Part shown: positions 1,067 through 29,163 of the stretch, piece by piece
Numbering within the stretch: the first letter of the stretch is position 1
How the letters are laid out: the number at the start of each line of letters is the position of its first letter
Program-made: the position numbers and the translations under genes
Notes under the pieces: generated by a model
The model's database searches: none
What the model saw: only the letters and a program-made list of their open reading frames with translations
Told to the model about the DNA's origin: nothing
Assembly: GCA_041662745.1 (NCBI GenBank)
Contig: JBAZRV010000004.1
Coordinates: forward strand, 6,315 to 70,314
Origin: Patescibacteria group bacterium
Lineage (GTDB): Bacteria > Patescibacteriota > Patescibacteriia > 2-01-FULL-39-33
Direction of reading: 5' to 3'
Length of the DNA stretch: 64,000 nt

Positions 1067-1078
1067 ACCTTGAATCTT

Positions 1079-3562: not shown

Positions 3563-3569
3563 GCGATTT

Positions 3570-4706: not shown

Positions 4707-4711
4707 ATTTG

Positions 4712-5258: not shown

Positions 5259-5320
5259 TGATTCTTAAAGAATTGCCAAAAGCGGGCTTTAAAAAAATTA
5301 TTAGTTTTAATCTTAAATAT

Positions 5321-6823: not shown

Positions 6824-6858
6824 CAAACCGCCGCCTTCAGCCACTCGGCCATCTCTCC
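6764..6858 (-). tRNA. tRNA-Ser (anticodon GCU) with a long variable arm
   Basis: The reverse complement reads GGAGAGATGGCCGAGTGGCTGAAGGCGGCGGTTTGCTAAACCG...GGGTTCGAATCCCTCTCTCTCCGCCA. The anticodon loop is TT-GCT-AA, and CCA is encoded. Confidence 0.8.
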
Positions 6859-6917: not shown

Positions 6918-7577
6918 CTACGCAGCTAAGACAAAACCGCTAATTTCAGCAAATCCTGCGGTTTTTAATGTGTCGGCGCATTCACGTAAGGTTGAGCCGG
7001 TAGTCAAAACATCATCAACTAAGATTATCCTTTTACCCCAGTTATCGCTTAAACAATCCAAATTGACTTGAAATGCCCCAATTACATTCTGCTCCCTGTT
7101 TTCTTGCGTCTGGCCGACTTGCGGCTTATGATAAACGACTCGCCGAAGCAAATCCGGACAAACCAATAAAGAAGAATTGGTAGCGGCTAAAGCCCTGGCG
7201 ATTACTTCCGCCTGATTGAACCCCCGCCAGAGATACCGACGGCGATGCAAAGGCACCGGGACCAAAACGGCCGGAAGATCATCTGTTTGTACTGATATTT
7301 TTTCTTTCTTTATTAACTGATGAACAGTGCGGGACAAGTCAAAGGCAAAATTATATTTTAAAGCGGCAATAATCCTGTCAATAAGCGGCTGTTCATAATC
7401 AAATAAAGCCTTAACCTTGATAAAATTAGCGCCAACAGGCAGAATCAATTGCCTTTCCCTGCTTGGCAATGTTGCTAAGCATTTTTCACACAGCCACTCA
7501 CCTTCCTGATGGCAATTCAAACAATAACGCGGGAACAGCAAGTCAACGATTTGCTCTTTAAAACCGCTTATTGCCAT
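6918..7577 (-). CDS. comFC: ComF family protein (ComFC, phosphoribosyltransferase-like)
   Basis: An N-terminal CxxC...CxxC zinc finger is followed by the PRTase signature ILVDDVLTTGST. Confidence 0.75.
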   Translation of the reverse strand: MAISGFKEQIVDLLFPRYCLNCHQEGEWLCEKCLATLPSRERQLILPVGANFIKVKALFDYEQPLIDRIIAALKYNFAFDLSRTVHQLIKKEKISVQTDDLPAVLVPVPLHRRRYLWRGFNQAEVIARALAATNSSLLVCPDLLRRVVYHKPQVGQTQENREQNVIGAFQVNLDCLSDNWGKRIILVDDVLTTGSTLRECADTLKTAGFAEISGFVLAA

Positions 7578-8137
7578 TTAGCTTGGTTTACCAACCATTC
7601 CGTGCCCGATTTGATGAAATTAAGCTGTAAATTACGATAATAAACATTAGGCGTAATGCCATCGCCGCTGGTCTGTGAAACTTGAGTTTTCACTACTACC
7701 GTCGCCGAGTCTGTTTTGACGCTTTGCAAATCGGCAGAAAGCGCCTTAACCGAGTAACCGGAAAAACCGGCAGCGCCGATAACCGGAGATTGAGCTAAAG
7801 ACGCCTTATACATTGTCGGGGTCATTAACGATTCCAAATCCTTGATATTCTTTTGCGGTTCATCAGTGGAATAACTGCCATAACGTTCGGCAAAAGACAT
7901 GGCTAACTGCTTTAGTCCGATAGGATATTGGTTTTCCTGCTCCAATCGCTCCGGTGGCGTAGCCGGCAGACCGAAGGCGGCGGCGTTACCGCTCGTTTCT
8001 ACCTGCGGCGTAGATCCGGGCTGTTGATTTACCGGCGTTTTTTGCGGTCTGAAGACTAACCACAAAACTATAATTAATGCTACCGCTATGGCAACAGCCA
8101 AAATAATTAACACTACTCGTCGTCGATCTTCAAACAT
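7568..8137 (-). CDS. Hypothetical single-pass membrane protein, 189 aa. It may be a VirB8-like T4SS component.
   Basis: An N-terminal TM helix is followed by a 150-aa extracytoplasmic domain. It sits inside the T4SS-like operon. There is no sequence-level proof of VirB8. Confidence 0.3.
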   Translation of the reverse strand: MFEDRRRVVLIILAVAIAVALIIVLWLVFRPQKTPVNQQPGSTPQVETSGNAAAFGLPATPPERLEQENQYPIGLKQLAMSFAERYGSYSTDEPQKNIKDLESLMTPTMYKASLAQSPVIGAAGFSGYSVKALSADLQSVKTDSATVVVKTQVSQTSGDGITPNVYYRNLQLNFIKSGTEWLVNQAKWQ

Positions 8138-8181
8138 ATGGAAAATTAGATTATTTTATCTATAATAATAATTGAATATCG

Positions 8182-10086
8182 CTAATTGTTCTGCGATAGC
8201 ATTGCCTCAGCAAATTCCTTCTTGGCCGCTTCAATTTCCAACAACTGCCGCGGATCGGAAGTAATCAACTGATCTTCAGAATATGAGGCCACCACTTTAA
8301 CGGCCACGTGTTTGGCGCCGGCAAAGAAAATACCTTCGCCCACCGCGCTTTCCAACAACAAATATTTTTCTCCTTCAGTCAATAAAAAGGTCTTTTGCAC
8401 CAAATCAATGGCCGCCGGAGACTGCTTAAGCAATAATTGAAGGGCGGAATTATTGACAATGGCCTGGCCATAAGGAGAGGTCAAAAAATCATTAACATCC
8501 TGAGTGATGGTCGTAACGCCCAAATAATATTTGCGGCAACGTTTGACCAGAGCAAAAATGAATTTGGCTGAATCTTCGCGCTGCATCAGCCACCAAGCTT
8601 CATCTACCACTAAAATCCTCTTTTTCATTTCGGAACGGACAATATTCCAAATATAATTGACAATAGTATAGATTGCCAGCGGCTTAAGCTCATCTTCCAA
8701 ATCACGGACGGAAAAAACCACCAGCTGATTATTTAATTGGACGTTTGTCGGATGATTAAGCAGGCCGGAAAAAGTGCCTTCAGTATATTTTTTAAGGCGC
8801 AAAACAATACTGCTGCCGCCCTCCATACCTTCCAAAATATCCTGAAAATCCTGCATGATAGGCGGTTCCACCGAACGCAAATCAGCATCGGGAGTGATGT
8901 CTTTCTTGGCATAAGTTTCCAACAATGCGCGATCAATAATGGAATCCTCCTCCGGCGTAACATCGCCGATCATTAATCGCACTAACCCCTTAACGGTAAT
9001 AACGGCATTGCGGATAATATCTGCCGGTTTGGCGTCTTCACCGATAGCCCGAGGCAAGTCAAAGGGATTGATTTTGCCCTCAGAATTAAGCGAAATATCG
9101 ATGTAAGTGCCGCCAACGGCTTCACACAGGTGATTATACTCCCGTTCCGGATCAATAATGATCACATCGGTTCCAAACATCATGCTGCGCAAAACTTCCA
9201 ATTTGATCGTATATGACTTGCCGGCGCCGGAAGTGGCAAACACCACGGAATTGGCATTCTGCAAGGAGAAACGATCAAACAGGATTAAACTGTTATTGTG
9301 GCGGTTAATGCCATACAAGATGCCGTGATCGGAAGTCAAATCCGAGGATACGAACGGAAAAGAAGACGCGGCCGGCGAAGAGTTTAGATTGATATAGACT
9401 TGAAGTTCATCATACGCCATGGGCAAGGTAGAATTAAATCCTTGCTCAGCCTGATAAAACACTCGGCGAGAAAAAATCAGAGTGCCGCCGAAAAAGTTCT
9501 CAATGCGTTCCGAAGTTTTGTCCAATTCCTCCAATGTCTTGGCATATAAAGTCACATACAAAGAAAATTGAAAAAAATGCTCAATACCTTGAGTCAGATC
9601 ATCGCGCAATTTCTCCATATCGCGCAAAGCGGTTTCAGACAAAGGATCGCGGGGCGCTCCCTTTTCCGCCGCGCCGATAATCGTCGCTTCCAACACGCCG
9701 ACTTTTTTCTTTAATTGCTTCAAAATGACCGCGGCTTTAACCGGAAAAAAATACATGGCCATGTCCGCCTCAATATCCATATTGATAATCGGCGCAAACC
9801 AGCCGACGGCGATATAGCGAGGATATTCAAAAACAAAAATCGTCCGAATATAAAGCTCGCCCAACCTGATATGATCGGAATTAACCTCCAAGGCGGCCGG
9901 AGCAATCAAATCCCGGACAGAAACGACGCCGCGCCGATAAATTCTCTCCTCCTCCAACACTTCGCGCGCCGTTTGCAACTCCTTAACTTCCGCTTGTTTC
10001 TTCTGCTGTTGCGTTGGCGGCGGCGGCGGAGCATAACCGACTGAAGCCGGGGTTGTTTGCTTATTGATATCTTCTGGAGTAAACAT
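8182..10086 (-). CDS. virB4: VirB4/TrbE-family T4SS ATPase, C-terminal ATPase portion of a split gene
   Basis: Walker A VFATSGAGKSYT and Walker B ILVVDEAWWL are present, at a size and arrangement typical of VirB4. Confidence 0.75.
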   Translation of the reverse strand: MFTPEDINKQTTPASVGYAPPPPPTQQQKKQAEVKELQTAREVLEEERIYRRGVVSVRDLIAPAALEVNSDHIRLGELYIRTIFVFEYPRYIAVGWFAPIINMDIEADMAMYFFPVKAAVILKQLKKKVGVLEATIIGAAEKGAPRDPLSETALRDMEKLRDDLTQGIEHFFQFSLYVTLYAKTLEELDKTSERIENFFGGTLIFSRRVFYQAEQGFNSTLPMAYDELQVYINLNSSPAASSFPFVSSDLTSDHGILYGINRHNNSLILFDRFSLQNANSVVFATSGAGKSYTIKLEVLRSMMFGTDVIIIDPEREYNHLCEAVGGTYIDISLNSEGKINPFDLPRAIGEDAKPADIIRNAVITVKGLVRLMIGDVTPEEDSIIDRALLETYAKKDITPDADLRSVEPPIMQDFQDILEGMEGGSSIVLRLKKYTEGTFSGLLNHPTNVQLNNQLVVFSVRDLEDELKPLAIYTIVNYIWNIVRSEMKKRILVVDEAWWLMQREDSAKFIFALVKRCRKYYLGVTTITQDVNDFLTSPYGQAIVNNSALQLLLKQSPAAIDLVQKTFLLTEGEKYLLLESAVGEGIFFAGAKHVAVKVVASYSEDQLITSDPRQLLEIEAAKKEFAEAMLSQNN

Positions 10087-10090
10087 AAAG

Positions 10091-10774
10091 TTAAACGAAA
10101 TCCTCGGTTCTTAATTTGTTAACATCGACCAATTTCTCACTGCGGGAAACCGTCGGATTATAAGTATTATAAAAAACCTCAATTAACGACTGGGTGTCTA
10201 AAACTTGGGCTCGCAAACCGATACTGGCCAAACCCGTTAAAACTTTATCCACGATAGTCAACAGTTCCCGCTGTCTTTGCATGAATTGTTTCTGTCCCAA
10301 AGATAGGATCTTGGTCGGCGACAGAACATCACCGCCCCTTTGCCAGAAGCTCCTGGTTTTTGAACGGAAGGGTTCATAAGGAACTACGACCAAAAAACGC
10401 TTTGTCATAATATTTCCCAATTCTACCAATTCGGTGACATATTGCCGATACTCGGCCATTTGCATCTTTAATAAGTCATTGGTCTGTTTGACCTCGGCGT
10501 CTTTCAAAAATTCCAAATACGATTCCAAATCCAATTGCCGTGACTGGATAATGATCTGCAATGGCATATCCAAAGAATTCAAGAAACTGACATAACCGGA
10601 AATAATGGCGTTCTGTTCATCCTCGGACTTAAGCGCGAAATTAATTGAAGACACCAAAATCACCGATCGCAAAGTGCCGTTTTTCATAACAATGGTATCA
10701 TCCCTGATCTCCGCTATCTGTAAATATTTCTGAGTTGAGGGAGTGGCTTTTGTGGCTTGCCGATTTTTAGCCAT
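10091..10774 (-). CDS. VirB4 N-terminal domain protein, the split partner of 8182-10086. The ORF track extends the start to 10873.
   Basis: LQIAEIRDDTIVMKNGTLRSVILVSSINFALKSEDEQNAIISGYVSFLNSL matches the conserved start of the VirB4 N-terminal domain. Its stop lies 4 bp upstream of the ATPase ORF. Confidence 0.55.
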   Translation of the reverse strand: MAKNRQATKATPSTQKYLQIAEIRDDTIVMKNGTLRSVILVSSINFALKSEDEQNAIISGYVSFLNSLDMPLQIIIQSRQLDLESYLEFLKDAEVKQTNDLLKMQMAEYRQYVTELVELGNIMTKRFLVVVPYEPFRSKTRSFWQRGGDVLSPTKILSLGQKQFMQRQRELLTIVDKVLTGLASIGLRAQVLDTQSLIEVFYNTYNPTVSRSEKLVDVNKLRTEDFV

Positions 10775-10820
10775 AAGATAAAATCTTCTATTTATGGTCC
10801 ATCGGTTGACGGACTTATTC

Positions 10821-11270
10821 TTAACTTTGATTATTGATCCCATTCTCCCCTTGGTACACGCCTCCGGTATCAATGACCAAGGCGATTTCTGACAAGCGGG
10901 ACTTGCTGACGGGTTGACGCGCCGCCATTCTAACTGCCGGCTTTTCTTCTTTAGGCTTGGCCAAATCAGCCCTTATTTCATCTAAGGTAAAAAATTTACG
11001 CCAAACCTTGAGTTTAGGATTCTTTAAAGTTTGAAAAAAGTTAAGCAAAAATAAATGAAAGGGTTGGCCGTTTATCTTGGCAAAAGCGATAATCAGGGTT
11101 AGAGCCAAAACCGCCAAGCCGGAAACGGCGAATAAAGAAAAATCAAATATCCTATAAAAAATCACGATGATCAATCCGCCGACAATAAGTTCAATGAACT
11201 GACGGACGGAAACCGGTCCGATAATCTTATCTTCAACATCCAAAAATTGTGGCACTACCACCTGTTGCAT
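10821..11270 (-). CDS. PrgI/VirB3-like small T4SS membrane protein
   Basis: QFLDVEDKIIGPVSVRQFIELIVGGLIIVIFY followed by two TM helices resembles the PrgI family. Confidence 0.5.
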   Translation of the reverse strand: MQQVVVPQFLDVEDKIIGPVSVRQFIELIVGGLIIVIFYRIFDFSLFAVSGLAVLALTLIIAFAKINGQPFHLFLLNFFQTLKNPKLKVWRKFFTLDEIRADLAKPKEEKPAVRMAARQPVSKSRLSEIALVIDTGGVYQGENGINNQS

Positions 11271-11272
11271 AA

Positions 11273-12685
11273 TTAGTAGCGTAAATTGCGATTAAGTTCC
11301 ATAACGGCATGGAATTCGTCAAGCGACAAGGTCGGCTTGCCGGCGGTTAAGCGTTCTTTGATTACCATTTCTATATCTTTGCCCTCAGCCATGGCCGCTT
11401 GCCCCAACAAACGATAAAACTTACTGACTTCATTTTTGTGCCAAGCCGCTATGCCCTCAATTTTCTTGCCAAAATATTCTTTCTCCAACAAGTCAATTTT
11501 TTCTTTAAGCTTGGCTGTTACGACCTTCGGATCGGGAGACAGGCGTCGAAAATCAATCAAGGTCATATTCTCCAACTCCTCAATCGGTCCCATTAGTTTT
11601 TTATTGAACTTTACATCGTCCAAATTCGGTCGGCTGGTCGGTCGTGGCAGAGCCAAATTGCCAGCCAAAGTTTCTTTCGTTGCAAACGGCTGAGGTTGCG
11701 GCAAAGGCAAATCCTTAACTACCTTAAGTTTAACATCTTGCGCGCTTGGGGGCAATTGTGTTTCTTTTTTTATCGTCTTAGACAGAGGCGTTAAACCGAT
11801 TTTTTTCTCTAAAATTTCAGAATCATCGCGCGGTTTGACCATCAAATCATCAGGTATCCGGATTACCGGCAAACCGTCTTCCATTTCTATGGTCAGGGCG
11901 GAACTGTTAGCTTGCGGCTTAGCGGTAACCGTCATGACCGCTTCGTTTTCCCCGTCTTCCGTCAAATCATCCGGTGATTCTCCGGAGGCGGGCGCGGGAC
12001 TAACCGGCCCTGCTGGTCCGGCGGCAACCGCTTTAATGATCTTTAACATCCGATCAGCATCGGCTTCCGAAAAATCCATTCCCCCGACTTTGCGGCTCTT
12101 CATCAAGTTCTCCTTGGTTTCCATTTCGTCTCGAACATCTTTTAGCCGAGCGATAATAATTGAGCCCAAACGCTTAACCATTACCTCGTCAGCGGCCGGG
12201 TAACCGAATGACAAAACAATAGAAGTGGCGGCTTCAGTATAATCAATAGTCCTCGGCGACGCCTTGACTGCTTGAGTGTATTTTTTAATTTCCTCTTCAT
12301 CCTCGCGGGAAAAAGTTATAACGGTGGAATTCTTTGGTTTATTTAACGCTTCAGGCTGAAACTTTCTATCAACATCCATTAAAGAAGGAGCGACTGGGGC
12401 CTTCCCGGCCGGCCGGCCGTAATATCCGACTTCATTCACTACCTCCCTAACGCCGTTAGCTACCTGATGCGCCAAAAAATCATTAAAACCGTAATCGATT
12501 TTTAGTTTGTCCGCCAGGACATCGGTCGTCACTTCGCCCAAAAAAATACTGACCACTAAAGACGTGGATTTAATGCCGAATTTTTCATCCAAAGCATCCA
12601 GCTTATCCAATATCTCGTCCGTGGATAACTTATCCTTGACTGTCGGCGGCAATGATTTAAGTTTATTTAAATATTCTTGAGGCAT
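11273..12685 (-). CDS. Hypothetical protein, 470 aa, in the T4SS-like operon
   Basis: Complete ORF with a proline-rich linker. No motifs recognised. Confidence 0.4.
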   Translation of the reverse strand: MPQEYLNKLKSLPPTVKDKLSTDEILDKLDALDEKFGIKSTSLVVSIFLGEVTTDVLADKLKIDYGFNDFLAHQVANGVREVVNEVGYYGRPAGKAPVAPSLMDVDRKFQPEALNKPKNSTVITFSREDEEEIKKYTQAVKASPRTIDYTEAATSIVLSFGYPAADEVMVKRLGSIIIARLKDVRDEMETKENLMKSRKVGGMDFSEADADRMLKIIKAVAAGPAGPVSPAPASGESPDDLTEDGENEAVMTVTAKPQANSSALTIEMEDGLPVIRIPDDLMVKPRDDSEILEKKIGLTPLSKTIKKETQLPPSAQDVKLKVVKDLPLPQPQPFATKETLAGNLALPRPTSRPNLDDVKFNKKLMGPIEELENMTLIDFRRLSPDPKVVTAKLKEKIDLLEKEYFGKKIEGIAAWHKNEVSKFYRLLGQAAMAEGKDIEMVIKERLTAGKPTLSLDEFHAVMELNRNLRY

Positions 12686-12692
12686 AATAATT

Positions 12693-13217
12693 TTAATTTC
12701 CTGCTAACTGTTGGCTCTTTAGGTATTCGTCCAACTCCTGCCGGCTAACGCCCAATTCTTCCAACAGCAGACGGCGCTCCAAGCCGGAAATAGTTGACCA
12801 ATCATACCTGCTTAACATATCGCTCCGACTATTAACCGATTCAACCGGAGCAGGTATAACCGATACTGCCGAATCATTCTCAATTTCTCTGGAAGTGTCA
12901 TTATCCGCAGTTAAAAAATCCTTGGATTGCAACCCCTCAATAAAGGCGTCAATATCGCCAAGATCATCCTGAAAATCCCTAAAACGATTTTTGGCTATTT
13001 CCAAAGCCAAACGCCGCTTAGTGCCATTACTTTGGATAACTGCCTTTTGTAATGCCAACCAAAATTCATTCAAATCAATATCACCCCAAATAACTTGGCC
13101 GATTAAATCCATAACCGCATAAATCTCAGAATCAGATAACTGAAAAGAGCCAAGCCAAGGATTTAACTGCTTTAACTCGTTAATTGTGCCCAGTTCATTT
13201 ACCTGTTGGGTAACCAT
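12693..13217 (-). CDS. Hypothetical protein, 174 aa
   Basis: Complete ORF within the operon. Confidence 0.4.
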   Translation of the reverse strand: MVTQQVNELGTINELKQLNPWLGSFQLSDSEIYAVMDLIGQVIWGDIDLNEFWLALQKAVIQSNGTKRRLALEIAKNRFRDFQDDLGDIDAFIEGLQSKDFLTADNDTSREIENDSAVSVIPAPVESVNSRSDMLSRYDWSTISGLERRLLLEELGVSRQELDEYLKSQQLAGN

Positions 13218-13220
13218 ATT

Positions 13221-16200
13221 TTATATTTCCTCCTCAAAATTTCCACCCTTTTTACCGCCTTTAATCGCCCGGGCCTTTTTGTCCCAATCGGTCGGCTTAA
13301 ATTTCGGACGGTCTTCGTTAATATCCACAAAATAATTCTCATTCTGCTTCAAAAAATCTTCAATCGCATCATTTATTTTCTTTCTTTCTCCTACCCTACC
13401 GCTAACCTGATCGCCTCTCAATTCCAGCTGTCTCTGCATCAACGTATTAATTTCATTTTGCGATGTTGGATCTCTTTTTGCTCGCAGACTTGCCAAATTT
13501 TTCTCTATTTGCTCATCTTCGGATCTTAATTTTTTAGCTTGATCAATCAAATCCTTATATCCGATTTTCACCGGATCATTCTCCGCTTCGTCAAGAATCC
13601 TTTGTTTAACTCCTTTTATCAACTCATTATTATTGCCTCTTGCGCCAATTACCCGCAAAGTATTAACATCCATGCCGCGCGCCACCGCTTTCTGATCAAC
13701 GTCTGACAAACTGCCCCACTTGATTTTTTCCGCGTCTTCTGCCTTAAGCGATCCGATAACATTTGATTTATTTTCCGCATTAACTCGGTCAGAAATACCC
13801 TCAAAAGAACCCTTGGACAACACATATTTTTTTATCATTTCCTCGGCATCCCTCAGATTCTTTGATGCTTGGTCAACAGCCTGCTGAGCGGCGCCCCTAT
13901 TCTCCTCAGTGGCATCATTTAATCCTTTTCTAGCATCCGCCAATTCAGAGTTCAATCGGCTAAAATCATAAGGATCAACGCTGCTGCCATTGCCAATAAT
14001 CGCTTCTTTAAGAGCATTATCAATTTTATCTTTATGCTCCTTACTGCGATCACCGAATTTTTCCTGCAGCTCCTTGGGCGAAGCCAGATCGCCAAAATCA
14101 CGCATAAAGTCTGCTGTCATGCCATCAACATGCATATTCTCCAAAACCTTATTGCGATTTTCGCTGAAATATTTACGAGCCTTTTCTTTTTGTTCCGGAT
14201 CGCTGCGATCATAGGCTTTGGCCACGTCATATTTCGTTGATAAATATTCTTTACGCGAATCTTCATCATAAATAACCTTACCGCTGGCATCAGTAATATT
14301 ATTGCCCTGCGCATCTTTTTTAGCAAAAGACATATGAGAAACTCCAGACCAAATATCCTTCTTGATCTCTGAAGACATGGCCTTGTCTAATTTAGATAAA
14401 TCACCGGCACCATGCTTCATTAAGAACTTAGCCAACGTATCGTCAAATCCTCCGGCACTATCTTTTTTACCGCCTAATGCTTCATTAAGATTAGTTAAGG
14501 TGGCTGAATCCATACTGCCCATGATCTTGTTTAAGTCAATCTTATCGGTCTTAAGATCCGACTCCAGTTTTTCAAGATTAATCTTGCCCTCCTTGGCGTA
14601 CATGGTATTCATGGCCAAATTGGGATTATATTTTCTCAGATTATCATCAAATTCCTTACCTAATTCTGTTCCGGTCAAAGCGGTGCGCGCCTGATTAATC
14701 AAATCAATATTATTACGCTTTTTACTTTCATCAATTTCATCATCCCTAATTAGACCCTTCTTCATCAAGGTTTGAGTAGCGGCAATTTTTTCATATTTAG
14801 TACCGCCGGAAGCCAAATTACGCAATTGATTCTCATTCTTCTTATCAATCTTAGCTCCTCCCGCCACCGCCCTGATGCTTTCATTAAATCTTTTGGTCGT
14901 ACCCGCTTCCAGAGACGCCATTTTGCCGCCTAAAGCTTCGCGCGCAAAGGGTATATTCTTGCCACCGGCTTGATAAAGTCCAGAATATAACCTTTGTCTA
15001 ACGCCTAATCTATCGTCAACGGCCGTGCCGATTGCTCCCGGAGCTTTTTTAGCTGCGGTTTTAGCCAAATTAAGGCCGCTGAAACGTTTGCCCTGCTTAG
15101 TCAAAAATTTCATGCCCGCACCGGCCCAGGAACTGCCGGCCGTGCCGAGTTTTTGACCGATAATGAGAGAGCCGACGAGCAAACCGATCAGCAAACCGAA
15201 GTTAATTATTTTTTCTACCGTACCCATTTTTGACAAGGCAAGAACAGTGGACTCATTACTGGCGCTACTGGCGCTTAGTCCGGCGGCCGCAGTCCCTTCT
15301 TGTTGTAATGCCGCACTGCCGCCGACGCCGGTAGTCTGTAAATCATAAGAAATCGTATCATCAAAACGCCCGTCATTCCCAAGGTCTTTAAGCGTAGTCA
15401 AAGAGACATAAATAAAAAACATCATAGCCGGGCCAACGATCAAATATTTTACCAAATCGCCAAGAACCTGGCCGGTATATTTGCTAGCGGCCGGAAAGGC
15501 CAAGCCAAAAAAATATAAAGGCGATAAGACCACCAAAAACAGCATATAAACTATGCGGTACATCAAAACGGCGGTAATGCAAAAGATTACGACCAAAGCG
15601 ACAAAAGTAAAAATAGTCGCAAACAGCATAGCCGCAACCAAGTTCCAAGTGCTGAACCCGGTGTCAGTCAGCTGGTCAGCTACGCCGTTCAAAGACATTA
15701 AATCAGGCAAACCTAAAGCGTTTAAAATCACGTTATAGCCGGTGCTTTGCGCCAGTGGCGCGGCAAAAGTCAACATCAGAATCTGCGAGGCGTCAATCAT
15801 TAAGCCGAAAAACATCTTAGAAAAGTTTATCAGTATCGCCGCCACCAGAATCTTAGGCATCATAGTGCGGAAATCATAATTTTTCTGATGTAAAATCGTA
15901 CCGACCGCCGAGACTAAAAGCAAAATAATGAAAAAATTATTACAAACATCCCTGATAACGGTCCAACCGATAGTAACCACTTTGTGATTGGTAAAATTAT
16001 TGAAAGTGGCAACAGCCAGCATGGCTTTAGTAACCAAAATCAAAATCCAACCCAAGCCGTAAGTCAAACCATAAAGTATCCAAGTCAACATGCGGGCGAT
16101 GACGTCAGAAAGAGTGGATTGAGCCTCTGTCCTTCTCCCTGCAGTTGCTTGCGTTACAGATTCGCCAGATTCAGGATTAACTAAATTACCATTCTCATCG

Positions 16201-16463: not shown

Positions 16464-16490
16464 AAAAATCTAATGAATAAAATGGATAAG

Positions 16491-22400: not shown

Positions 22401-25400
22401 GCCCAGCGTTTGCTGGTAAGTGGTAGGACAAGTCTCGGTGGTGCCGGATTTAACCCATTTATCCAAATTATTGGTATTATCAGCGGAAGTAAACTGGCAA
22501 ACCTTGCCGTGCGGATCCTTGAAGTAAGCCAAGGTGTTATTCCCGACCCACTCTTCGCACCATAAATTTTCGGCTGAGCATAGATCAGTGGAATAACGAT
22601 CCGGATCGTTTTTAATATAGATATCCCGATAACCGGTAATCTCATCCCATTTGTCTATCAAAGGCAAACCATAGCGAGTGCAACCCTTATCATTCTTGGC
22701 GCAGGCATATTTATCGTCATTGACCAAATAAACCAAGGTATCAGTTGCCACAAAAATATCATCATGATTAACGCTATTGGCGATATTAAACGATTGCGCC
22801 TGAGGCGCGCTGGAATTAAAGGTATCAATCAAGGCCTCGCAACCGGCCGCTTCGGGGCGACACAAGGAAGCAAAGGATCTTAAGTAAGCTGTTTTATTCT
22901 TACGATCCGAGTAACCGGCGCAACCCAGCATTTCTCCGACGGAGCAACGTCCGGACTGGGTATCCTGGCAAACACCCTCAGCTTTGGCCTTGCTGCCGTC
23001 AGGATCATCCAATTTATTGTCGCAAGAAAGCGGAGTGAACCAAGAATTTTCTATGGCGTAAACTTGGTTAGTGATTTCCTTAAGAATAACATTATCCAAA
23101 TAAACGATCTGGCCGTTGGGCATGGAAAATTCCAAGTAATTGCCGTCGCCCGGTTCCCAGGTTACGAATAACGGCCCCAGTTCATAACGCTTCCAGTCTG
23201 CCGTCAACTGCGTCCGCGGACTGATTAGATTTTCTCCGAATAAACGGCTGGCAGAAAAATAATTATTGCCGGCGGCGGCAGAGTTGTCATTCCAATTAAC
23301 ACCGCTCTTTTCGGCAAATCTGATATTGTCAAAATAATAAGAAGCATTGCCTTTAGCCCAGAATGACAGGGTATAGGCCTTGCCCTTGTTAATTGTTATC
23401 GGATAATGAATGGTGGAATTATCAACCTTATTAGATAAAGAATTACCGCCGGGGAAGGTTGACTCGGAAGAAATGAATAAGCCGTTTTTGCCGCCATTGG
23501 CATCCTCCCATAAATCCAAAGCGGTGCTGCTGGCGGTAAAATTAACCACGCTAATGGCATTTTTGACGTTATTACCCCGGTTGCCGGTGTAAGCGCGGCA
23601 GCCCTGAGCGGCGGCAGGACAAGTTTTTCCCTGTCCGGGGATAGCCATATAAATACATTCACTGCTATCATTCCACCAACCGCTATGGCTTTCGCAATTG
23701 GCCTTGGCCTCGGTAAACGAGGTTTCGGTCATGGTGCGGCGATACGGGTGGCAATTATCGGAAACGGAAACAGTGCGGGATAATAAACGATAATGAATAT
23801 TGCCGTTTACATCATACAATTCGCGGCAATCCGGGTTGCTAACCATATCATCCTTGGTACAGACGCCAAAATCATAACGATCGCGATCCGCACCGCGAGC
23901 GCTCGTTGGATCATTGCAAACGGCATTGCCCGAAGCGTTATAAGCCAAATTAACGCAAGGAGCGCTGCCATTGCCAACGCCGGCCGTTTCTGGGTCGCTG
24001 GCGATCTGTGATTTCTTTAAGCTGAACGCCACCAGCTGGTAACCGGTGATATCGGAACCCTCCCAAGTATAATAAGCGCCGTCATCAACCGATGGTTTCT
24101 GGCAGGCCTGGATTTGACTATAATATTCTTTCTGCTCCCCGCCCTGGCCGGCAACGTCAAGATTGGTGAATTCATCGCAACCGGCATAACTGGCAGAACA
24201 AGTCTTGAGTTTGTTGTCGGCGATGAACTGCCTGAAAGCTTGATTGATAAAACTGGTCTCTTCTTGATTGTATAACTGATAGCCGGCGCATTCCTTAGGA
24301 CAAGCATCAAAATCCTGCGCCACACCCGGTATTGACGGGTCACCATTAAGGGGGCGATATAATTCACAACCGACTTCTTGCGGCGTACAAACACCGGAAT
24401 ACAGGGCGCAATTGGCATTCTTATTCTTTAAGACGCCAGTTAGCTCCTGTTGATTTTGGGGCCATTGCAAGCCGGCAAGATCCGGATAAGCATCATAACA
24501 ACTAAAGTAACTGGGGGCCTTCTTAAGGTAAGCCACTTGTTCAATCGGCCGGGTTGAAGGATTATAATCGCTATAATTACTGGGATAAGTAGCATTAAAA
24601 GAAATCGCCTCAACCTTGGCATTATCAATAATCGCCTCCTGGCCGGCCGATCCGGTGGAGAACCACAATTCCAGTTTAGCGGCGTTATCCGGCGCCTTAA
24701 ATTTACAGAAAAACCGACTGGAAGTGGCAAAGGAAGTCGGAGTAAACTTCAAAGCCAATGTTTGCGGGACACTGCCATCCTTGTCTCTGGCCCAGTCGCA
24801 AGTCGCCGAAGAAGTGGCTACCTGCAAAACGGCTCCGGCCTTGGATTTGAATCTCAAAAAAGTCTCAATCGGAACTGCCTGGTCAACGGAAGCTTGATAA
24901 CCGTCAATAGCCAAAAAATAATATTGGCCGGGAGTAACTTGGATTGCCTTATTAACATTAGCGCTATCCAAACCACTTAAATAGCCGATCTTGGCTCTGG
25001 TGTTATCTGCCAAGGTCAGATTGCTCCAATCATATAAAGTGCCGTCAAAGCCGCCGTTAATGACAACATTACCGCCCAAATTTGATTTAGTGCGGATGAA
25101 TTGGCTGCAGCCGTCGCTTAAAGACGAGCAAGTCTGAGCATCACGATCAAAATACATTTCAGTTGCGCCCTCGCGCGAAGAAACAAGGACTGATACGGCG
25201 CCGACGCCGCAAGCAGTACTGATGGGATAAAATTCAAAATCATCAAGATATAAATCGGCGTAAACCCCGGCAGGATTGCGCGCCACCAAAATCACCCGTT
25301 CATTGTCGCCGGAATTAAAATTCAAATTAGCTTCGCGCCAACCGGAGGAACCGCTGGTCAATTGCAAATTATTCAATAAGGAAGGCCATAATGAGCTGTC

Positions 25401-28109
25401 TTGATCAAAAGACGTAAAGTCTTTGCTATCGGCCCGCACTTCCACATTAACATTGCCGTTAATAGACCCTTTATAATAAAATCTAACATTATAATTGGTG
25501 TTCTTCTCTACCGGTATAGCCGGCTCGTAACTGATCAGATCGGCCGGAGCATAAAGCGTCTTAATAAAAAGCGCGGCGGCGCCACTGTGTTTTTCGGTGG
25601 TAACGCGAAGATGGCGATTGTTGTTGTCAATAAACGCCAAAGTCCAAGAAGCGGCTTTCCAGCTTTCCTGGCTGTTAAGCAACGCTTCCAAACCGAGATT
25701 CGGCTTGTTTATCACTTCGGCAGTATAGACATCGGGGAATAATTTAGCGTCATTGCATAACCGCAATTGGCAAGACACGCCATTGTCCGGAACATTGCAG
25801 AAAGGATTCTGAGGGATATAACTGGCCTGATCTGCGGCTTCGGAATACTGGAAACTGCAATAATTGCCGCCGGTAGTCTGATGGAAAACGCAACCTTTGC
25901 CCGTGACATCCAATTTACACATGTCCGAGGAGCAGGGCGAAGCCAATCGCAAACGCGAATTGGCGCTGACTTGATGGCCGGCCTGCACCCACCAATCCTT
26001 ATCGCTTCTGTTGAAAGTTATTATTTGATTGATAGTCTCAGGCGGAGCAAGTTGCGTACCGCTGCCCAAATTAGTCCAAGTCTGACTGGACGGATTGTAA
26101 TTGATGGCATACCAACGACAACCGGCCACTTGCGCATTGCAATTTCTAAAATCCAAGGTATTGGTTAAATAAGAAGAGGCATTGCCGGCGCGCGAAGCGT
26201 AGGTCTGGCAGGAATTGACTCTGGCCGGACAAGTCTTCCCCAAATCCCAAACGCGACGCTCTTCATTGCAATAGCCATAAGCCAAGCAAGCGCCGTTCTC
26301 ATCCTCTTGCAGACATTGTTGCTCGTCGGAACAGTATTCCAAGCGGCCGATGGTTCCGCTTTGATCGTCTTTATTCAGATTAAGAGCGCCGTAACCTTGG
26401 CGGCGACAACTGGTTTCATACGCTTTCAGCGTCCAGTAAGGGTCAACCATCCCCTTAAAGTTATTGGTGGTGCAACCGTTTTTGCCTATGCCTTCATAAC
26501 AATTGATCAATTCGCCCAGAGTATATTCGCGATTACTGTTAGAATTCTTAATAAAATTAGCGGCTTCTTCCCAACCCACCGGTACGATGCGGTATTGGCG
26601 TAAAACCAAAATAGAACGGTAAGGAATGGCTGTCTGCAAGGAGTTGGACTGTTCTGATCGAGGAGAAAAAACCCGGTTCTTGATTTGATCAGGCAGATCA
26701 ATCACATAGGTTTTGCTTTTAACCGCTTGGGCCAAAGAATCATCCATGACGCAGTCCATTGGTCCGGGATTAGTTTTGGCTGAGTCATCGCAAGAAGAAA
26801 GCTCAACTATTAAATCAACCTTCCCGCCTTGCTGGCCCTGGCTGCCGGAAATGGCGTTATTTATTCTTTCTTCAGCCCCCTTAGTGCCTTCAGTAATTAT
26901 CGGACTGGCCGAAGGATTAAACAAAGCGGTCAAGGCGCCGGAAAGTATGCTGGAACCTTGACTGGCCAGAGAATTGGAACTACCGCCGGATGAACCGCCG
27001 GATGATGATTGCGTCAAAGAAAACAAGCCCTCTTTTAATAACCCTAACGATTCGGCTACGACCGTATCCATGAATTCAAACGGCACAGCCATAGCTGTTT
27101 CCGTCCAAGTAATAGCGTATTGCGAGTTGCCTTTTTTCAACATGGCATCAGCCATCATTTCATGAAGCATGGTGCCGGGAGTAAGGATTTTACCATTAAA
27201 GGTTGCCTTGCTCAGCCAACCCTGATTGGTGCTGGCTTCATAAGTTTTGGCTTTGATCTGCTGATTAACCGCCGCATCGCGCAAATCCAAAGCTAACAAT
27301 GAAGCGGTGATATCATTTTCTCCGGGGCGCAAGGCCAAGGTGTACTCTAAGGGAAAATTTAGATTAGTTACGGCCTCTTGCCAATTGGTCATGATTTCGG
27401 AAAAAGTACACCTGACACGGGGAGTCGTCTGGCCTAATTGAATATTAATCAATAGCCGTACCTGCAAATCAGGCTGGCAGATATCCACGCCGTAATGCTG
27501 GCTGAAGTTATCAATAAAATCACCCAAAGCCGAGTCGGCGGCATTAAGCAGATAGGCATTCCATCCTTCGGTAATATAGGCCGGCTTCTGACCCTTAAGC
27601 GCGGTAAAAGCGATCTTGGTGGCTTCACGCGTCACGCTTCTAAGCAAGGTATCCAAGGCTTTAGAGGCGGAACTACTCAGGGCGGATAAAAATTTCCTCC
27701 GCCTTTCATCGTTCTTCACTTTTCTAATTTCTGACTTCAAATCGGCTTCAATTTGGTCTCCCGTGCTGGCATCGGAAATATACTTATTACAAACGGTCTG
27801 AGCTTCAGTTAAAGCGCTAAGTTTGGCGCCGCATTCAAATGCCGTACAAGGTATGGCCAATGCTGCTGTTTTCAATTCTTGGCACATTGCTAAAGCTGTC
27901 TTGGCAGGAACACCGGCTTCCGCTTCAGCTTCCGCTTCAGCTAAATCTATTTTTGATTGAGCTAATTGTTCATCAAAAGCCGCCTGGGGATCAACTTGAG
28001 CTAAGACATTTAAAGGGTAAAGAATCCACAAGCAACAAAAAACTACTCCCAATAAAACCATCGGGCCATAAAATCTTACACGATTATACTTATTCAGATT
28101 TAAAAGCAT
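16491..28109 (-). CDS. Giant cysteine-rich secreted or surface protein, 3872 aa, probably an adhesin or effector of the T4SS-like system
   Basis: A single 11.6-kb ORF with an N-terminal signal/TM segment (MVLLGVVFCCLWILYPLNVLAQV). It has very many Cys residues and repeated lectin/CBM-like segments (NGNFEE...GW...). No stop codon occurs across 11.6 kb. Confidence 0.7.
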   Translation of the reverse strand: MLLNLNKYNRVRFYGPMVLLGVVFCCLWILYPLNVLAQVDPQAAFDEQLAQSKIDLAEAEAEAEAGVPAKTALAMCQELKTAALAIPCTAFECGAKLSALTEAQTVCNKYISDASTGDQIEADLKSEIRKVKNDERRRKFLSALSSSASKALDTLLRSVTREATKIAFTALKGQKPAYITEGWNAYLLNAADSALGDFIDNFSQHYGVDICQPDLQVRLLINIQLGQTTPRVRCTFSEIMTNWQEAVTNLNFPLEYTLALRPGENDITASLLALDLRDAAVNQQIKAKTYEASTNQGWLSKATFNGKILTPGTMLHEMMADAMLKKGNSQYAITWTETAMAVPFEFMDTVVAESLGLLKEGLFSLTQSSSGGSSGGSSNSLASQGSSILSGALTALFNPSASPIITEGTKGAEERINNAISGSQGQQGGKVDLIVELSSCDDSAKTNPGPMDCVMDDSLAQAVKSKTYVIDLPDQIKNRVFSPRSEQSNSLQTAIPYRSILVLRQYRIVPVGWEEAANFIKNSNSNREYTLGELINCYEGIGKNGCTTNNFKGMVDPYWTLKAYETSCRRQGYGALNLNKDDQSGTIGRLEYCSDEQQCLQEDENGACLAYGYCNEERRVWDLGKTCPARVNSCQTYASRAGNASSYLTNTLDFRNCNAQVAGCRWYAINYNPSSQTWTNLGSGTQLAPPETINQIITFNRSDKDWWVQAGHQVSANSRLRLASPCSSDMCKLDVTGKGCVFHQTTGGNYCSFQYSEAADQASYIPQNPFCNVPDNGVSCQLRLCNDAKLFPDVYTAEVINKPNLGLEALLNSQESWKAASWTLAFIDNNNRHLRVTTEKHSGAAALFIKTLYAPADLISYEPAIPVEKNTNYNVRFYYKGSINGNVNVEVRADSKDFTSFDQDSSLWPSLLNNLQLTSGSSGWREANLNFNSGDNERVILVARNPAGVYADLYLDDFEFYPISTACGVGAVSVLVSSREGATEMYFDRDAQTCSSLSDGCSQFIRTKSNLGGNVVINGGFDGTLYDWSNLTLADNTRAKIGYLSGLDSANVNKAIQVTPGQYYFLAIDGYQASVDQAVPIETFLRFKSKAGAVLQVATSSATCDWARDKDGSVPQTLALKFTPTSFATSSRFFCKFKAPDNAAKLELWFSTGSAGQEAIIDNAKVEAISFNATYPSNYSDYNPSTRPIEQVAYLKKAPSYFSCYDAYPDLAGLQWPQNQQELTGVLKNKNANCALYSGVCTPQEVGCELYRPLNGDPSIPGVAQDFDACPKECAGYQLYNQEETSFINQAFRQFIADNKLKTCSASYAGCDEFTNLDVAGQGGEQKEYYSQIQACQKPSVDDGAYYTWEGSDITGYQLVAFSLKKSQIASDPETAGVGNGSAPCVNLAYNASGNAVCNDPTSARGADRDRYDFGVCTKDDMVSNPDCRELYDVNGNIHYRLLSRTVSVSDNCHPYRRTMTETSFTEAKANCESHSGWWNDSSECIYMAIPGQGKTCPAAAQGCRAYTGNRGNNVKNAISVVNFTASSTALDLWEDANGGKNGLFISSESTFPGGNSLSNKVDNSTIHYPITINKGKAYTLSFWAKGNASYYFDNIRFAEKSGVNWNDNSAAAGNNYFSASRLFGENLISPRTQLTADWKRYELGPLFVTWEPGDGNYLEFSMPNGQIVYLDNVILKEITNQVYAIENSWFTPLSCDNKLDDPDGSKAKAEGVCQDTQSGRCSVGEMLGCAGYSDRKNKTAYLRSFASLCRPEAAGCEALIDTFNSSAPQAQSFNIANSVNHDDIFVATDTLVYLVNDDKYACAKNDKGCTRYGLPLIDKWDEITGYRDIYIKNDPDRYSTDLCSAENLWCEEWVGNNTLAYFKDPHGKVCQFTSADNTNNLDKWVKSGTTETCPTTYQQTLGLSYKAATDKLQPLGPINSVTLQESSDPAYSGWVGSCSAEQSGCSEYIDPLENLASNLIPQRCEGKDVCADVSIKKNILYVLSDNLQVGDIICSDVQNVSNNLSDNFGHYLYLAVDNPKSLTCRVAFKTKDGSPIDLVRDKVGLASVSYILNSKVSGGDCNGQVDYHKGCVLFNDRSQLDYSNLINSATTSLAFSSRLTRDNNYPQGINGLSRSVPPTAATAEGKPKDANVILKSQPNRACANWLTCSTFEKKEEGQSSTLAPYFFSDQDSCLEVSACNSLGDNGICNNYLTNDAVSNDDYSPSLDANKSGFSRVGYYSFDAMTQVGQSSNVVNGNFEETFGATTQPLGWRLAVYYCASNSDCASGNPDIVYRNWQSSYVNISRDGAKAKDGVGYLKVNSGWGVISESVDILPNQEYFLSAWVHTKDLQGPGSGGRLPYAELRLRFLNSKSQPRPGLAIVDGGVYEGDWVKGEIMQIPTGLPWRQVIVHFRTGDNVSGVQLALFNMNPDGSKGIDNSKLGGYTLWDNVNLKPLLKSSANGYVDRTCRVYPSLNAPACKYNDGNNYFYGQYGYCLTPDPANNQQCLQWWPVDSIRGETLSDFSGYYSERYPLYYCLEKRTMVLDVSQYTSNFGLFGEGVNDSGMEALKFDTNAKQTKATSFRISPTWSPLFRYPFIYKFQFDGIFIAIGDTASHTLFGGALSVGMWKNLVCAKPLGIIPLPICYVPAGNGLITVSDTSSVTTPAQEEVQSWVQSNPSGRVCEYSVLATLNDSSGGGLKPCSCDNPEDNANSTCQSVVNTANCVNSTEAFSSNNNCITADLAEKYAKPISDYTYFCETTAEPCSCTGGIANCEDSVHCSNPGTNKCAKVFVDSGASAGAVGVAQTISQQNQSLNDLYGGCRGSTEDCEGQTSSFWTNTWSGISQFFNSIFGSLGNLLDIVFAPNSLNLADEDSWGGWGAVAVAGYGQLLSFVPVNIVLHVELPWHTAKKFDTSGGVLGNLAGMLIQAAGVDLGISTFGLRIITDEDSEFGKDLTDPNPAVTGDVLGFAKFLDFNKPAGMGDKMGGIAVVGNFAGKQVVEYCYKLVQVVNSGNENKAWASRLSSGSQYLDYLGKDCVKDSSISGDAIPSGVGIVTPSNAELFSDGCFYSSAYCLAESRRLYDADGALLGFYPLNLCQNFIGIDNGQGVNDPDDPTRKLYCAEGISLEGRQRTAYLNQANALNCEIAYNSRPIGESADNNYFQVHSFAKDTPSIAINDCRINYKYFCVNDRNFGAIGILRDKKLIYRRIYAAVGYNYATDYKPFGSTVAPENGQYPNEWDTRPDSGGNQPIFYEFPGGSAPPYQARAGQKSDNSLYYVDNFSVSKPDLLQLFGRSYSLWQWQADKSSDPLIGHYTDISGAISSNNSVWSLPTLYCPNNSRPANTYLSFCLVRPEFTLAQVNPTIVNSIGAVKVSFNSKIDPDQVPIRSYDIDWGDGNVSSYAGLSLASRPTSSNAFNLYHFYNYDSLANKNLRECETKVGILPLGDGTTETVEEYNDDLTKGACQEPVRSTSNPAAFHVPIKLTVRDNWASVNSITIKDLIVLRRDTYDAEQQDALAECKPASYSSALGQQCSSGNPCCSATCYWLPENEVNLNIDPTDSTQKTCCATYTGGWRRCREIGDGYCDIGEQAIDPNTDNYSPDDCGNVVADVAPIDYADGVCPETKSLDDDIDCPLGQGSLITLAHDSYDWKAFMAINTVGGGCGGAPGTGEEGEYNDERGESKGNFNFNADASTFAGYAVSSSIEYFLDLVYAPNDAESDKQLRYGDIFRLVPCFKDSYGSGSNSCPATSAVKPADAASIPVVSPIKLNIYKTQPTWLQQLFGADPSDWKAYLDACGADGDVYFKVCQNQSCDGPADKVGIGDRVVLRVVTNSAQAGSPIEASLYDVTLYAGGEDQSPTFLNTEEDASRPYKAAQVNVSPSLNFRLCNRYGNCGY

Positions 28110-28116
28110 AATTATT

Positions 28117-29163
28117 TTAAGTTGAAGTTGCTGTTGAAGAAACTATGCGCTTTTCTAATTGGCTGATGAACACCTGTTTCAATTCATCATCGCCAATGGT
28201 GTCCAAAATAACGCTATCACCGCCGGATTTAATCAGGATCTGCCTGATTTGCGCGCCGGACAGCTGTTTAAAATCAGCCATAGTGGTAACGCCGAATGAC
28301 TCCAAATTAACATTGGCCCAACCGCTCGTAGCGGTAGCTAAAGCATCAACGGTCAAATCTGTTTGGTTAACTAAAGCATCATCAACGCCCAAATCTCCGC
28401 CAATGGCGTAAGAAGAAAAAACTGTCGGATCAATCAGGCCGTATTGCTGCAATTGTTGCGCCATAGTCGGATTATTCTGCAAATATTGAGCAAAAGTCTG
28501 CATTAATTCATCATCGGTGGTATCGGCCAGATCCTGATCGCTAATGCCGCTGCTTTTTAGCATCTGTCTGATAATATCCGGAGTCAAAGCCGAATAATTG
28601 TTGGTCTGGCCGGCAGTTGCCGTTAGGGGCGCCGAATCAGTGGAACCGGATGGCAAGACGCCGGTATCGGAAGGGCTGGCAGTAGAATCCATGGTAGGCA
28701 ATCCCGTACATTTTTGGCCTTGCGGACAGTTCGGATCAGTCCCCCTATCCACCTCAATTTTATCGTTAAGGCCGTCGGAATCGCTGTCTTTAAGATAGGG
28801 ACTGGTATGATAAACGCTTAATTCAAGATTATCAGCCAGGCCATCGGCGTCGGTATCGCGGGTCATCATGTCCCTTATTTGCGCTTGTTGCAAAGCTAAC
28901 CTCTCCGCGCGGGATTTATTACCGGCCTTAACTATATCTTGAAAAGGATTTTGGCTGGCGAAAAAAAACTGCCAAAAACCAAAAACAAGGGCCATTAACC
29001 CGATTGCCGCGATTAAAACTGTATGCATTTTTTCCTTGCCGGTAAGCGATTTACCTAAGCTTGAGTCATTGCCTGAAGCGGGGGTATCGCCCACTTCCAG
29101 ATTCTTCAAGTAATCAGCTTCTTTATCTTCACTTATCGGCCGGGGTTGTTCACTACCTTCCAT
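28117..29163 (-). CDS. Membrane-anchored protein with thrombospondin-type-3-like Ca-binding repeats, 348 aa
   Basis: A TM helix (LIAAIGLMALVFGFWQFFF) is followed by the DTDADGLAD and DSDSDGLND repeats. Confidence 0.45.
   Translation of the reverse strand: MEGSEQPRPISEDKEADYLKNLEVGDTPASGNDSSLGKSLTGKEKMHTVLIAAIGLMALVFGFWQFFFASQNPFQDIVKAGNKSRAERLALQQAQIRDMMTRDTDADGLADNLELSVYHTSPYLKDSDSDGLNDKIEVDRGTDPNCPQGQKCTGLPTMDSTASPSDTGVLPSGSTDSAPLTATAGQTNNYSALTPDIIRQMLKSSGISDQDLADTTDDELMQTFAQYLQNNPTMAQQLQQYGLIDPTVFSSYAIGGDLGVDDALVNQTDLTVDALATATSGWANVNLESFGVTTMADFKQLSGAQIRQILIKSGGDSVILDTIGDDELKQVFISQLEKRIVSSTATST

Follow-up and report, generated by a model that had tools for sequence, protein, structure and literature searches.

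The locus described here raised the question of what a type IV secretion system (T4SS) accomplishes in a patescibacterium when neither a coupling protein nor a relaxase is seen with it, and whether a giant protein encoded beside its channel genes belongs to it. The window, i.e. the whole stretch of 64,000 nucleotides (64 kb) that was analyzed, originated from a Patescibacteria group bacterium (assembly GCA_041662745.1, contig JBAZRV010000004.1, positions 6,315 to 70,314 of the forward strand). A block of 10 open reading frames (ORFs), all on the minus strand, occupied positions 6918-29163, with an even GC content of 43-48% and an intergenic spacing of −10 to 44 nt. An original prediction, made from the sequence alone, had listed ten minus-strand ORFs, and all ten were present with coordinates exactly as first noted. 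The block opened with the genes of a TSP3-repeat membrane protein and of a protein of 3872 amino acids (aa), hereafter the giant, and closed with ComFC. It was concluded that the giant and the TSP3 protein are conserved members of the T4SS cluster in a large part of the class ABY1, not in all of it. The block itself is probably the version of the chromosomal Patescibacteria T4SS that occurs in class ABY1, derived from monoderm conjugation machinery of the MPF-FATA type, vertically inherited and not conjugative.

Relatives were collected by a VirB4 scan of one genome per GTDB species, resulting in more than 551 relatives of 70-98% identity, the best of which (98%) belonged to a Candidatus Buchananbacteria metagenome-assembled genome (MAG). 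Eighty VirB4-centered loci (of at least 551) were fetched and the proteins of the window were compared with them by tblastn. The 80 kept loci were MAGs or single amplified genomes, mostly titled Patescibacteria, Buchananbacteria, Falkowbacteria or Parcubacteria; the GTDB class ABY1 includes Buchananbacteria and Falkowbacteria. The order giant, VirB6-like, (variable gene), p470, PrgI, TrsD, VirB4, VirB8-like, ComFC was conserved across the loci and was retained down to ~25-30% protein identity. All but a few of the relatives lay in MAGs whose titles named the Patescibacteria group or no phylum. Implausible titles were frequent at 70-80% VirB4 identity: many such MAGs (L006, L008, L010 and others) were called "uncultured Gammaproteobacteria bacterium" and a single one "Nanoarchaeota archaeon". 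Their gene content makes it almost certain that they are Patescibacteria under wrong labels.

The linkage of the giant to the T4SS genes was seen from VirB4-centered as well as from giant-centered loci. Among the VirB4-centered loci, 47 contained enough upstream sequence. The VirB6-like gene was found in 36 of them, and a giant-family ORF lay directly upstream of it in 26 of those 36 (26/47 overall). Further, 15 metagenome loci were chosen solely by the giant motif QCLQWWPVD. The VirB6-like gene directly followed the giant in all 13 that had sequence there, and the TSP3 gene lay directly upstream in all ten with sequence on that side, KsgA preceding TSP3 in nine. Complete giants of this set measured 3012-3885 aa. 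The same TSP3-giant arrangement was present at L081 and L087, the TSP3 homologue of the latter being 63% identical. In the sister genome L001, the giant was 81% and the VirB6-like protein 82% identical to those of the window. The membership of the giant and the TSP3 protein in the cluster follows from this linkage, observed from both sets of loci. Neither protein is mentioned as a cluster member in the two principal reports on Patescibacteria T4SSs (PMC12102498, PMC10633639), and the giant family and the fixed giant-VirB6-like and TSP3-giant order were not found in the searched literature.

Another arrangement was recorded at seven loci (L018, L020, L025, L030, L034, L057 and L063). These kept p470, PrgI, TrsD, VirB4 and the VirB8-like gene, the VirB6-like gene and the giant were undetected within 10 kb, and pairs of ~400-440-aa ORFs were found there instead. 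Such loci show that the cluster takes another form in a subset of ABY1.

The giant was encoded by a continuous ORF at 16491-28109. It had been described as a Cys-rich protein with a signal peptide, and indeed 132 Cys residues (3.4%) were counted and residues 18-36 formed a hydrophobic signal at the N-terminus. The "lectin-like repeats" also attributed to it stood in part. CBM_4_9 (PF02018) was the sole Pfam family matched, at residues 836-896, with 29.8 bits against a cut-off of 25.9, and this carbohydrate-binding module (CBM) was matched by 13 of 14 giant-family members (best 1e-17). NGxF-type starts, together with weak similarity to CBM4 in solved structures, suggested three further CBMs. 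However, the modules are not sequence repeats: self-BLAST showed no internal repeats in the giant, and only two trivial micro-repeats were returned by TRF. By eye, about four jelly-roll modules were distinguished, with Cys-rich spacers between them that carry a recurrent C-x6-C-x-aromatic motif, in addition to a PKD-like "DWGDG" module near residue 3370. The N-terminal region is helical and conserved, and the C-terminal tail varies. No LPXTG motif was present in the giant, and neither the giant nor its family members matched PrgB-type adhesin domains in Pfam. The comparison of the giant with the PDB by sequence gave no match, and a C-terminal profile yielded only weak matches to CBM4 xylanases.

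An exhaustive HMMER search with residues 2400-3500 of the giant returned 476 cluster representatives at E ≤ 1e-3, or 374 at E ≤ 1e-10, mostly of ~2400-3900 aa and matching at the same relative position. According to BLAST coverage and an alignment of 14 sequences, the homology was co-linear over residues ~100-2530 and 3200-3420 with ~70 invariant Cys, the variable regions being 700-1000, 2530-3200 and the C-terminal tail. Hypervariability between close relatives was considered and rejected, since the identity was fairly even at 83-89% and dipped at three places (the first 100 residues, 2600-2800 and the tail). An assembly artefact made of collapsed repeats was likewise excluded by the lack of internal repeats and by full-length co-linear homologues of 3852, 3861, 3872 and 3885 aa carried by independent assemblies. 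In some relatives the giant was split into two adjacent ORFs (L081, 3167-14603, 2210 + 1595 aa; L097, 2-5855; L023, 2-1957); the splits may be genuine or may result from frameshifts or faulty assembly. In L081, 23S_rRNA_IVP and GIY-YIG genes were also scattered through the T4SS block.

The Sec-type signal together with ~70 family-invariant Cys suggests an extracellular, disulfide-bonded protein, and the giant is thus better read as a predicted exported adhesin or structural part. It had been proposed as either the substrate or an adhesin of the system; the same two features speak against the substrate, and the adhesin was retained along with a structural role. The first gene of the block (28117-29163, 348 aa) encoded the protein foreseen as a membrane protein with Ca-binding repeats, and Pfam TSP3_bac was matched above its cut-off (1.7e-6, 28.2 bits versus 25). 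This protein combined a single transmembrane (TM) segment at 49-67 with thrombospondin type-3 Ca-binding repeats, and it could possibly serve as a membrane partner or anchor for the giant.

The T4SS core was then assigned gene by gene. The 634-aa VirB4 ATPase (8182-10086) exceeded the cut-off of the equivalog family NF045971 conju_CD1110 (1.7e-106, 357 bits versus 325) over profile positions 180-732 of 752. Pfam P-loop_TraG was matched as well (3.5e-30), and the translation contained intact Walker A (SGAGKS) and Walker B (ILVVDEAW) motifs. Its profile matches were closest to the conjugative CD1110 and Mycoplasma integrative and conjugative element (ICE) families, and a weak match to CedB (2.4e-11) fell far below the cut-off. 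The 149-aa PrgI/VirB3-like protein (10821-11270), a small membrane protein with two hydrophobic helices, matched Pfam PrgI (5.8e-7, 30.4 bits versus 27) and was present in 72 of the 80 loci. Both proteins, named in the original prediction, thereby passed curated cut-offs.

The neighboring 228-aa protein (10091-10777) matched NCBIfam NF041427 TrsD at 2.9e-10, under the 200-bit cut-off of that family, and also aligned to positions 2-119 of the CD1110 VirB4 profile (3.5e-8). Judged by these profile matches, it is a TrsD-family protein, homologous to the N-terminal domain that Firmicute VirB4 carries and specified by a gene of its own. As TrsD and VirB4 matched complementary parts of the CD1110 profile, the two together equal one Firmicute VirB4. 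The mechanical ORF began with TTG at 10873 (10091-10873, 260 aa), and the ATG at 10777 gave 228 aa, in agreement with homologue lengths of 223-239 aa. An unusual split of VirB4 had been suspected at this place. A separate TrsD proved to be the normal state: it adjoined VirB4 in 73 of 76 related loci, and TrsD is the most abundant Patescibacteria T4SS component, usually found next to virB4 (PMC12102498). A frameshift artefact at 10086-10091 was also ruled against, because the junction reads TAA-cttt-ATG and a fusion would take two changes at once, removal of the stop codon and a shift of the reading frame. The precomputed annotation placed TrsD homologues of two relatives (L081, 22404-23087; L085, 7321-8004) in Pfam PF26593 (TraC-like); the Pfam scan of the window protein reported a weak TraC_F_IV match only and not PF26593.

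The 1080-aa protein (13221-16463), an extended VirB6-like polytopic membrane protein, was less clear. Its topology, with ~6-7 TM segments at 126-437 followed by a ~640-aa coiled-coil-like C-terminal domain, was compatible with the VirB6-like role assigned earlier. Pfam TrbL/VirB6 was matched below threshold, with an E-value of 0.0012 and 19.1 bits against a cut-off of 25.9. TrbL was matched at E < 0.01 by 15 of 41 members of the VirB6-like family (best 4.6e-5), NF045890 pLS20_p028 was matched at 2e-4, and the matches of the C-terminal half were confined to coiled-coil proteins. The protein is therefore likely, not proven, to be VirB6.

The 189-aa protein p189 (7568-8137) is VirB8-like at the level of the fold, being bitopic with an N-terminal TM helix, a disordered linker and an NTF2-like domain, as anticipated for the VirB8 candidate; its gene was present in 77 of the 80 loci. 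The soluble protein p470 (11273-12685, 470 aa) was a conserved cluster member, best conserved over its C-terminal ~120 residues; in 65 of the 80 loci its gene stood between PrgI and the VirB6-like gene. It had no match in Pfam, NCBIfam or PDB profiles, and profiles of p189, p470 and the VirB6-like protein gave no T4SS match among PDB sequences. The soluble p174 (12693-13217, 174 aa) was poorly conserved (61% identical in L001) and likewise without a match in Pfam, NCBIfam or PDB. Similarity to the N-terminal ~100 residues of p174 occurred inside the same ORF as p470 in L003, L006, L012, L014, L090 and L093, which suggests gene fission or fusion, or a common N-terminal domain. Unrelated genes for 290-470 aa occupied this position in other relatives.

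ComFC (6918-7577, 219 aa), the last gene of the block, had been correctly identified. It matched TIGR00201 comF at 6.5e-28, under the trusted cut-off, as well as Pfam Pribosyltran and DZR_2 (a phosphoribosyltransferase fold and a zinc ribbon). Of 70 loci, 39 had it adjacent and in the same orientation. In the window, ComFC and the VirB8-like gene overlapped by 10 nt; owing to this overlap the two genes are probably co-transcribed, and they may be translationally coupled.

The original prediction had described a Gram-positive-type chromosomal T4SS core lacking a coupling protein and a relaxase. About 40 ORFs of the window, i.e. the largest and all those bordering the operon, were scanned against Pfam, and no domains of VirD4/type IV coupling proteins (T4CPs) or relaxases were found among them, which supports that description. 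T4CP homologues are common in Patescibacteria and seldom adjoin virB4 (PMC12102498). Additionally, the block occurred at the same chromosomal position beside KsgA in many species. The housekeeping flanks comprised KsgA, Der, Pth, DprA, TopA, RelA/SpoT, ParB and ParA, along with an MFS transporter and FemAB; mobile or defence items were carried there as well.

In blastn, L001 and the window were co-linear from 19969 to 6767, ending at a tRNA-Ser(GCU) gene (6764-6858, minus strand; ARAGORN and Rfam), and a large serine recombinase at 5186-6823 abutted this tRNA gene. The synteny covered the whole block and broke off at precisely this tRNA gene, which assigns the recombinase to an insertion of its own. 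Beyond ComFC, L001 and L085 carried genes for a 166-aa protein and RecG, and then, on the opposite strand, RadA, two T4SS_pilin (VirB2-like) genes and a 412-aa protein. The pilins lay 5-8 kb beyond ComFC, and one pilin gene of L001 additionally encoded an SLT lytic transglycosylase domain as a fusion. RecG was found in 34 of the 80 loci, RadA in 32 and pilins in 22. In the window, tblastn gave no match to the RecG, RadA and pilin/SLT genes of the sister genomes, its small ORFs not having been scanned against pilin profiles. The locus was truncated by a foreign element inserted at tRNA-Ser, which parted the operon from its usual neighbors; the displaced RecG/RadA/pilin genes probably lie beyond the window. 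DprA was retained at 34623-35711, 5.5 kb from the block.

The block encodes a translocon of the cytoplasmic membrane together with its motor, made up of the VirB6-like protein, PrgI/VirB3, TrsD with VirB4 and the VirB8-like protein. We proposed that the giant would be exported by Sec and placed on the cell surface, where it might be held by the TSP3 protein or by an external loop of the VirB6-like protein. Its CBMs could then bind glycans of the host cell wall and bring the translocon to the host cell, a role comparable to that of PrgB-type adhesins in Gram-positive conjugation. The giant is accordingly worded here as probably the host-contact part of the cluster. As for the cargo, contact-dependent import of DNA is favored, tentatively, over the export of effectors. 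The preference is based on the lack of a T4CP and a relaxase, the 10-nt ComFC overlap, the RecG/RadA/DprA neighborhood and the role of ComFC, which handles incoming single-stranded DNA (PMC9005727). A T4SS without T4CP or relaxase in the window, linked to ComFC and DprA and, in relatives, to RecG/RadA, displays features of the DNA-uptake type, and such a system might work like H. pylori ComB or archaeal Ced. A further-reaching and rather doubtful version is that the giant and the TSP3 protein constitute an unrecognised class-wide module which spans the wall and binds the host, doing the job of pilins or PrgB-type adhesins elsewhere. With ComFC, RecG, RadA and DprA, the apparatus would then take up DNA from a contacted host, which would supply nucleotides or genes to organisms unable to make nucleotides.

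Several points weigh against this proposal. A VirD4 homologue may be encoded in another part of the genome, beyond the window; the VirB2-like pilins and the VirB1-like hydrolase of the sister genomes were absent from the window by tblastn; and the VirB6 assignment nowhere reached a curated cut-off. The AlphaFold2 model of giant residues 60-700 was unreliable (pLDDT 50.7), and Foldseek returned no meaningful fold match for it. ComFC could be adjacent simply because a small genome packs its genes into operons. No giant was found within 10 kb in 10 of 36 VirB6-like-positive loci, and 11 of 47 loci had neither the VirB6-like gene nor the giant, so that the giant is not universal even within ABY1. 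Finally, in Southlakia the T4SS is essential and comEC is not (PMC10633639, PMC12857230), which speaks against an essential function in DNA uptake, at any rate for that class.

This last observation leads to the rival account of the cargo, in which effectors or other proteins are exported into or onto the host for resources, as proposed for Saccharibacteria, with the giant serving adhesion only and ComFC being a passenger. Such export is possible, yet we regard it as unlikely. The essentiality of the Southlakia T4SS independently of ComEC (PMC10633639, PMC12857230) agrees with it, as do the absence of a relaxase and a T4CP from what was found here and the adjacency of ComFC in just 39 of 70 loci. 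Conversely, the block encodes no candidate effector without a Sec signal, a coupling protein is usually required by effector-translocating T4SSs, with Ptl and Brucella VirB as the exceptions, and the recurrent comF/recG/radA linkage in the class would be left unexplained (PMC12102498). The idea that the giant is itself the substrate translocated by the T4SS is very improbable. Its operon position is the only point in favor, and it is countered by the N-terminal Sec-type signal, by a length of 3872 aa with ~70 family-invariant Cys, which imply folding and disulfide bonding outside the cytoplasm, and by the consideration that a protein exported by Sec from a monoderm cell needs no second translocon.

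The giant and the TSP3 protein might instead be an independent Sec-secreted adhesin module that happens to lie beside KsgA, with no functional or physical link to the T4SS. The Sec signal of the giant and the 10 of 36 VirB6-like-positive loci lacking it nearby would fit, but this explanation is improbable in view of the VirB6-like gene directly following in 13 of 13 giant-chosen loci, on the same strand and across a gap of 27 nt in the window. The giant and the VirB6-like protein also diverged to a similar extent from those of L001 (81% and 82%), and the gene order was kept down to ~25-30% protein identity. An ICE, or part or a decayed remnant of one, with its relaxase and coupling protein outside the window, is the least credible of the alternatives and is regarded as extremely unlikely. 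The tRNA gene and large serine recombinase adjoining ComFC, as well as the VirB4 nearest to conjugative CD1110 and Mycoplasma ICE families, would be expected of such an element. The sister-genome synteny, in contrast, spans the block and ends exactly at tRNA-Ser, the block stands beside KsgA in many species, more than 80 species-level genomes carry VirB4 at this one chromosomal position with 70-98% identity, and relaxases are rare in the phylum (PMC12102498). A vertically inherited, non-conjugative chromosomal T4SS with a giant as its probable host-contact protein remained the preferred reading.

To our knowledge, no ABY1 bacterium has been cultivated. In the sole genetically tractable patescibacterium, few machines are known to be indispensable for epibiotic growth, and the T4SS is one of them. 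A conserved CBM-containing giant in the T4SS cluster is a concrete candidate for the host-recognition part across the class; it can serve as a marker gene, and its variable regions might track host range. The cluster also links secretion machinery with DNA-handling genes in a testable manner. The T4SS type itself was already published, and apart from the giant/TSP3 module the present work is a re-identification of that system, the "split VirB4" being ordinary. What is added is the class-wide giant/TSP3 module, the fold-level VirB8 and the locus-truncating insertion.

The surroundings of the block showed further features. Positions 1-6767 of the window were foreign, containing the large serine recombinase, a bAvd gene with repeats resembling those of diversity-generating retroelements (DGRs), a helix-turn-helix gene and perfect inverted repeats. 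The element extended leftwards for at least 6.3 kb outside the window, with two N6_N4 DNA methyltransferases and a 508-aa protein. The region left of tRNA-Ser, at least 13 kb long, probably represents an integrated element or a prophage. Its DGR-like cassette (293-3348) included the bAvd gene (2701-3348, minus strand) and a 115-nt repeat in three copies (940-1054, 2023-2137 and 2522-2636) that were 86-88% identical. Two of the copies stood at the 3' ends of the paralogous ORFs 293-1066 and 1370-2149, which also had repeats D1 and D3 in common; no reverse transcriptase adjoined the cassette within the window. The perfect inverted repeats of 101 nt (3461-3561/5074-5174) and 87 nt (5172-5258/6683-6769) bracketed ORF 3570-4706 and the recombinase, reaching tRNA-Ser, and could be invertible segments, element ends or an assembly artefact.

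A second DGR-like unit was located at 51423-55238, with a reverse transcriptase gene (51423-52532, minus strand) and a 129-nt repeat pair (52892-53020/53354-53482, 82% identical), one copy of which lay at the 3' end of a 631-aa ORF (53343-55238) without a Pfam match. The DGR-like cassettes of the window had no repeat pairs with the giant gene. A second large serine recombinase (45889-47151) was found beside tRNA-Met and tRNA-Leu (47240-47441), and a stretch of low GC content (38-39%) at 42-46 kb contained a SocA/Panacea antitoxin-like gene and a B12-binding radical SAM gene; the 42-47 kb region may be another island. Promoter and terminator scans of the window gave no excess over chance, and their results were not used.

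The closest known counterpart of the block is the T4SS of the Patescibacteria clade, surveyed by Quinonero-Coronel et al. in 2025, whose VirB4 clade is related to MPF-FATA (PMC12102498), and represented by SEML1_0006-0019 of Southlakia epibionticum, a Saccharibacterium in which Wang et al. (2023) found the T4SS essential for epibiotic growth (PMC10633639). The chromosomal location, the MPF-FATA-related VirB4, the separate TrsD, PrgI/VirB3 and, probably, a VirB6-like protein are shared, as are the lack of a relaxase and of an adjacent T4CP and the nearby KsgA. The survey recorded PrgI/VirB3 and VirB6 homologues in Patescibacteria, VirB8 homologues almost solely in ABY1, relaxases as nearly absent in the phylum, KsgA in the vicinity of the T4SS genes, and the T4SS of ABY1 as co-located with comF, recG and radA (PMC12102498); the comF (recG/radA) co-location and a detectable VirB8 homologue apply here as well. 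The saccharibacterial locus differs by an essential VirB2-like pilin array and peptidoglycan hydrolases inside the cluster. Here none were found within 64 kb, and the sister genomes carry their pilins beyond ComFC, RecG and RadA, unlike that in-cluster array. The large proteins of Patescibacterium danicum are of the FhaB type and unrelated to the giant.

H. pylori ComB and the archaeal Ced/Ted systems are likewise T4SSs without a coupling protein or relaxase and depend functionally on, or are genetically linked to, ComFC, DprA and recombination proteins. ComB is, however, a diderm MPF-T system, the Ced membrane proteins are unrelated, neither has a giant surface protein, and DNA import is only proposed for the present system. 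Extended VirB6 proteins (TcpH of pCW3 and the Rickettsiales paralogues; PMC12857230, PMC7648143) have the same polytopic N-terminal half and large hydrophilic C-terminal domain, their similarity to the window protein being limited to the sub-threshold TrbL match and the C-terminal domain here being coiled-coil-like.

Among the MPF-FATA systems (pGO1/pSK41 trs, pCF10 prg and C. difficile CTn2 CD1110), the differences lie in the block having no relaxase, T4CP or VirB1-type hydrolase and not being on a mobile element. Adhesins such as PrgB were undetected in the Patescibacteria dataset of the survey (PMC12102498), and the giant differs from PrgB in having no LPXTG anchor and no detectable homology, in being three times larger, and in keeping a constant domain order across ~2,500 residues in its homologues rather than being built of repeats. 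On the side of the likenesses, VirB4 scores above the equivalog cut-off of CD1110, pGO1 likewise has TrsD ahead of VirB4, and PrgI, a VirB8-fold protein (PrgL, TcpC) and, probably, an extended VirB6 are common to both. In pCF10, the surface proteins PrgA/B/C are encoded upstream of the channel genes, and the giant is likewise upstream of them here.

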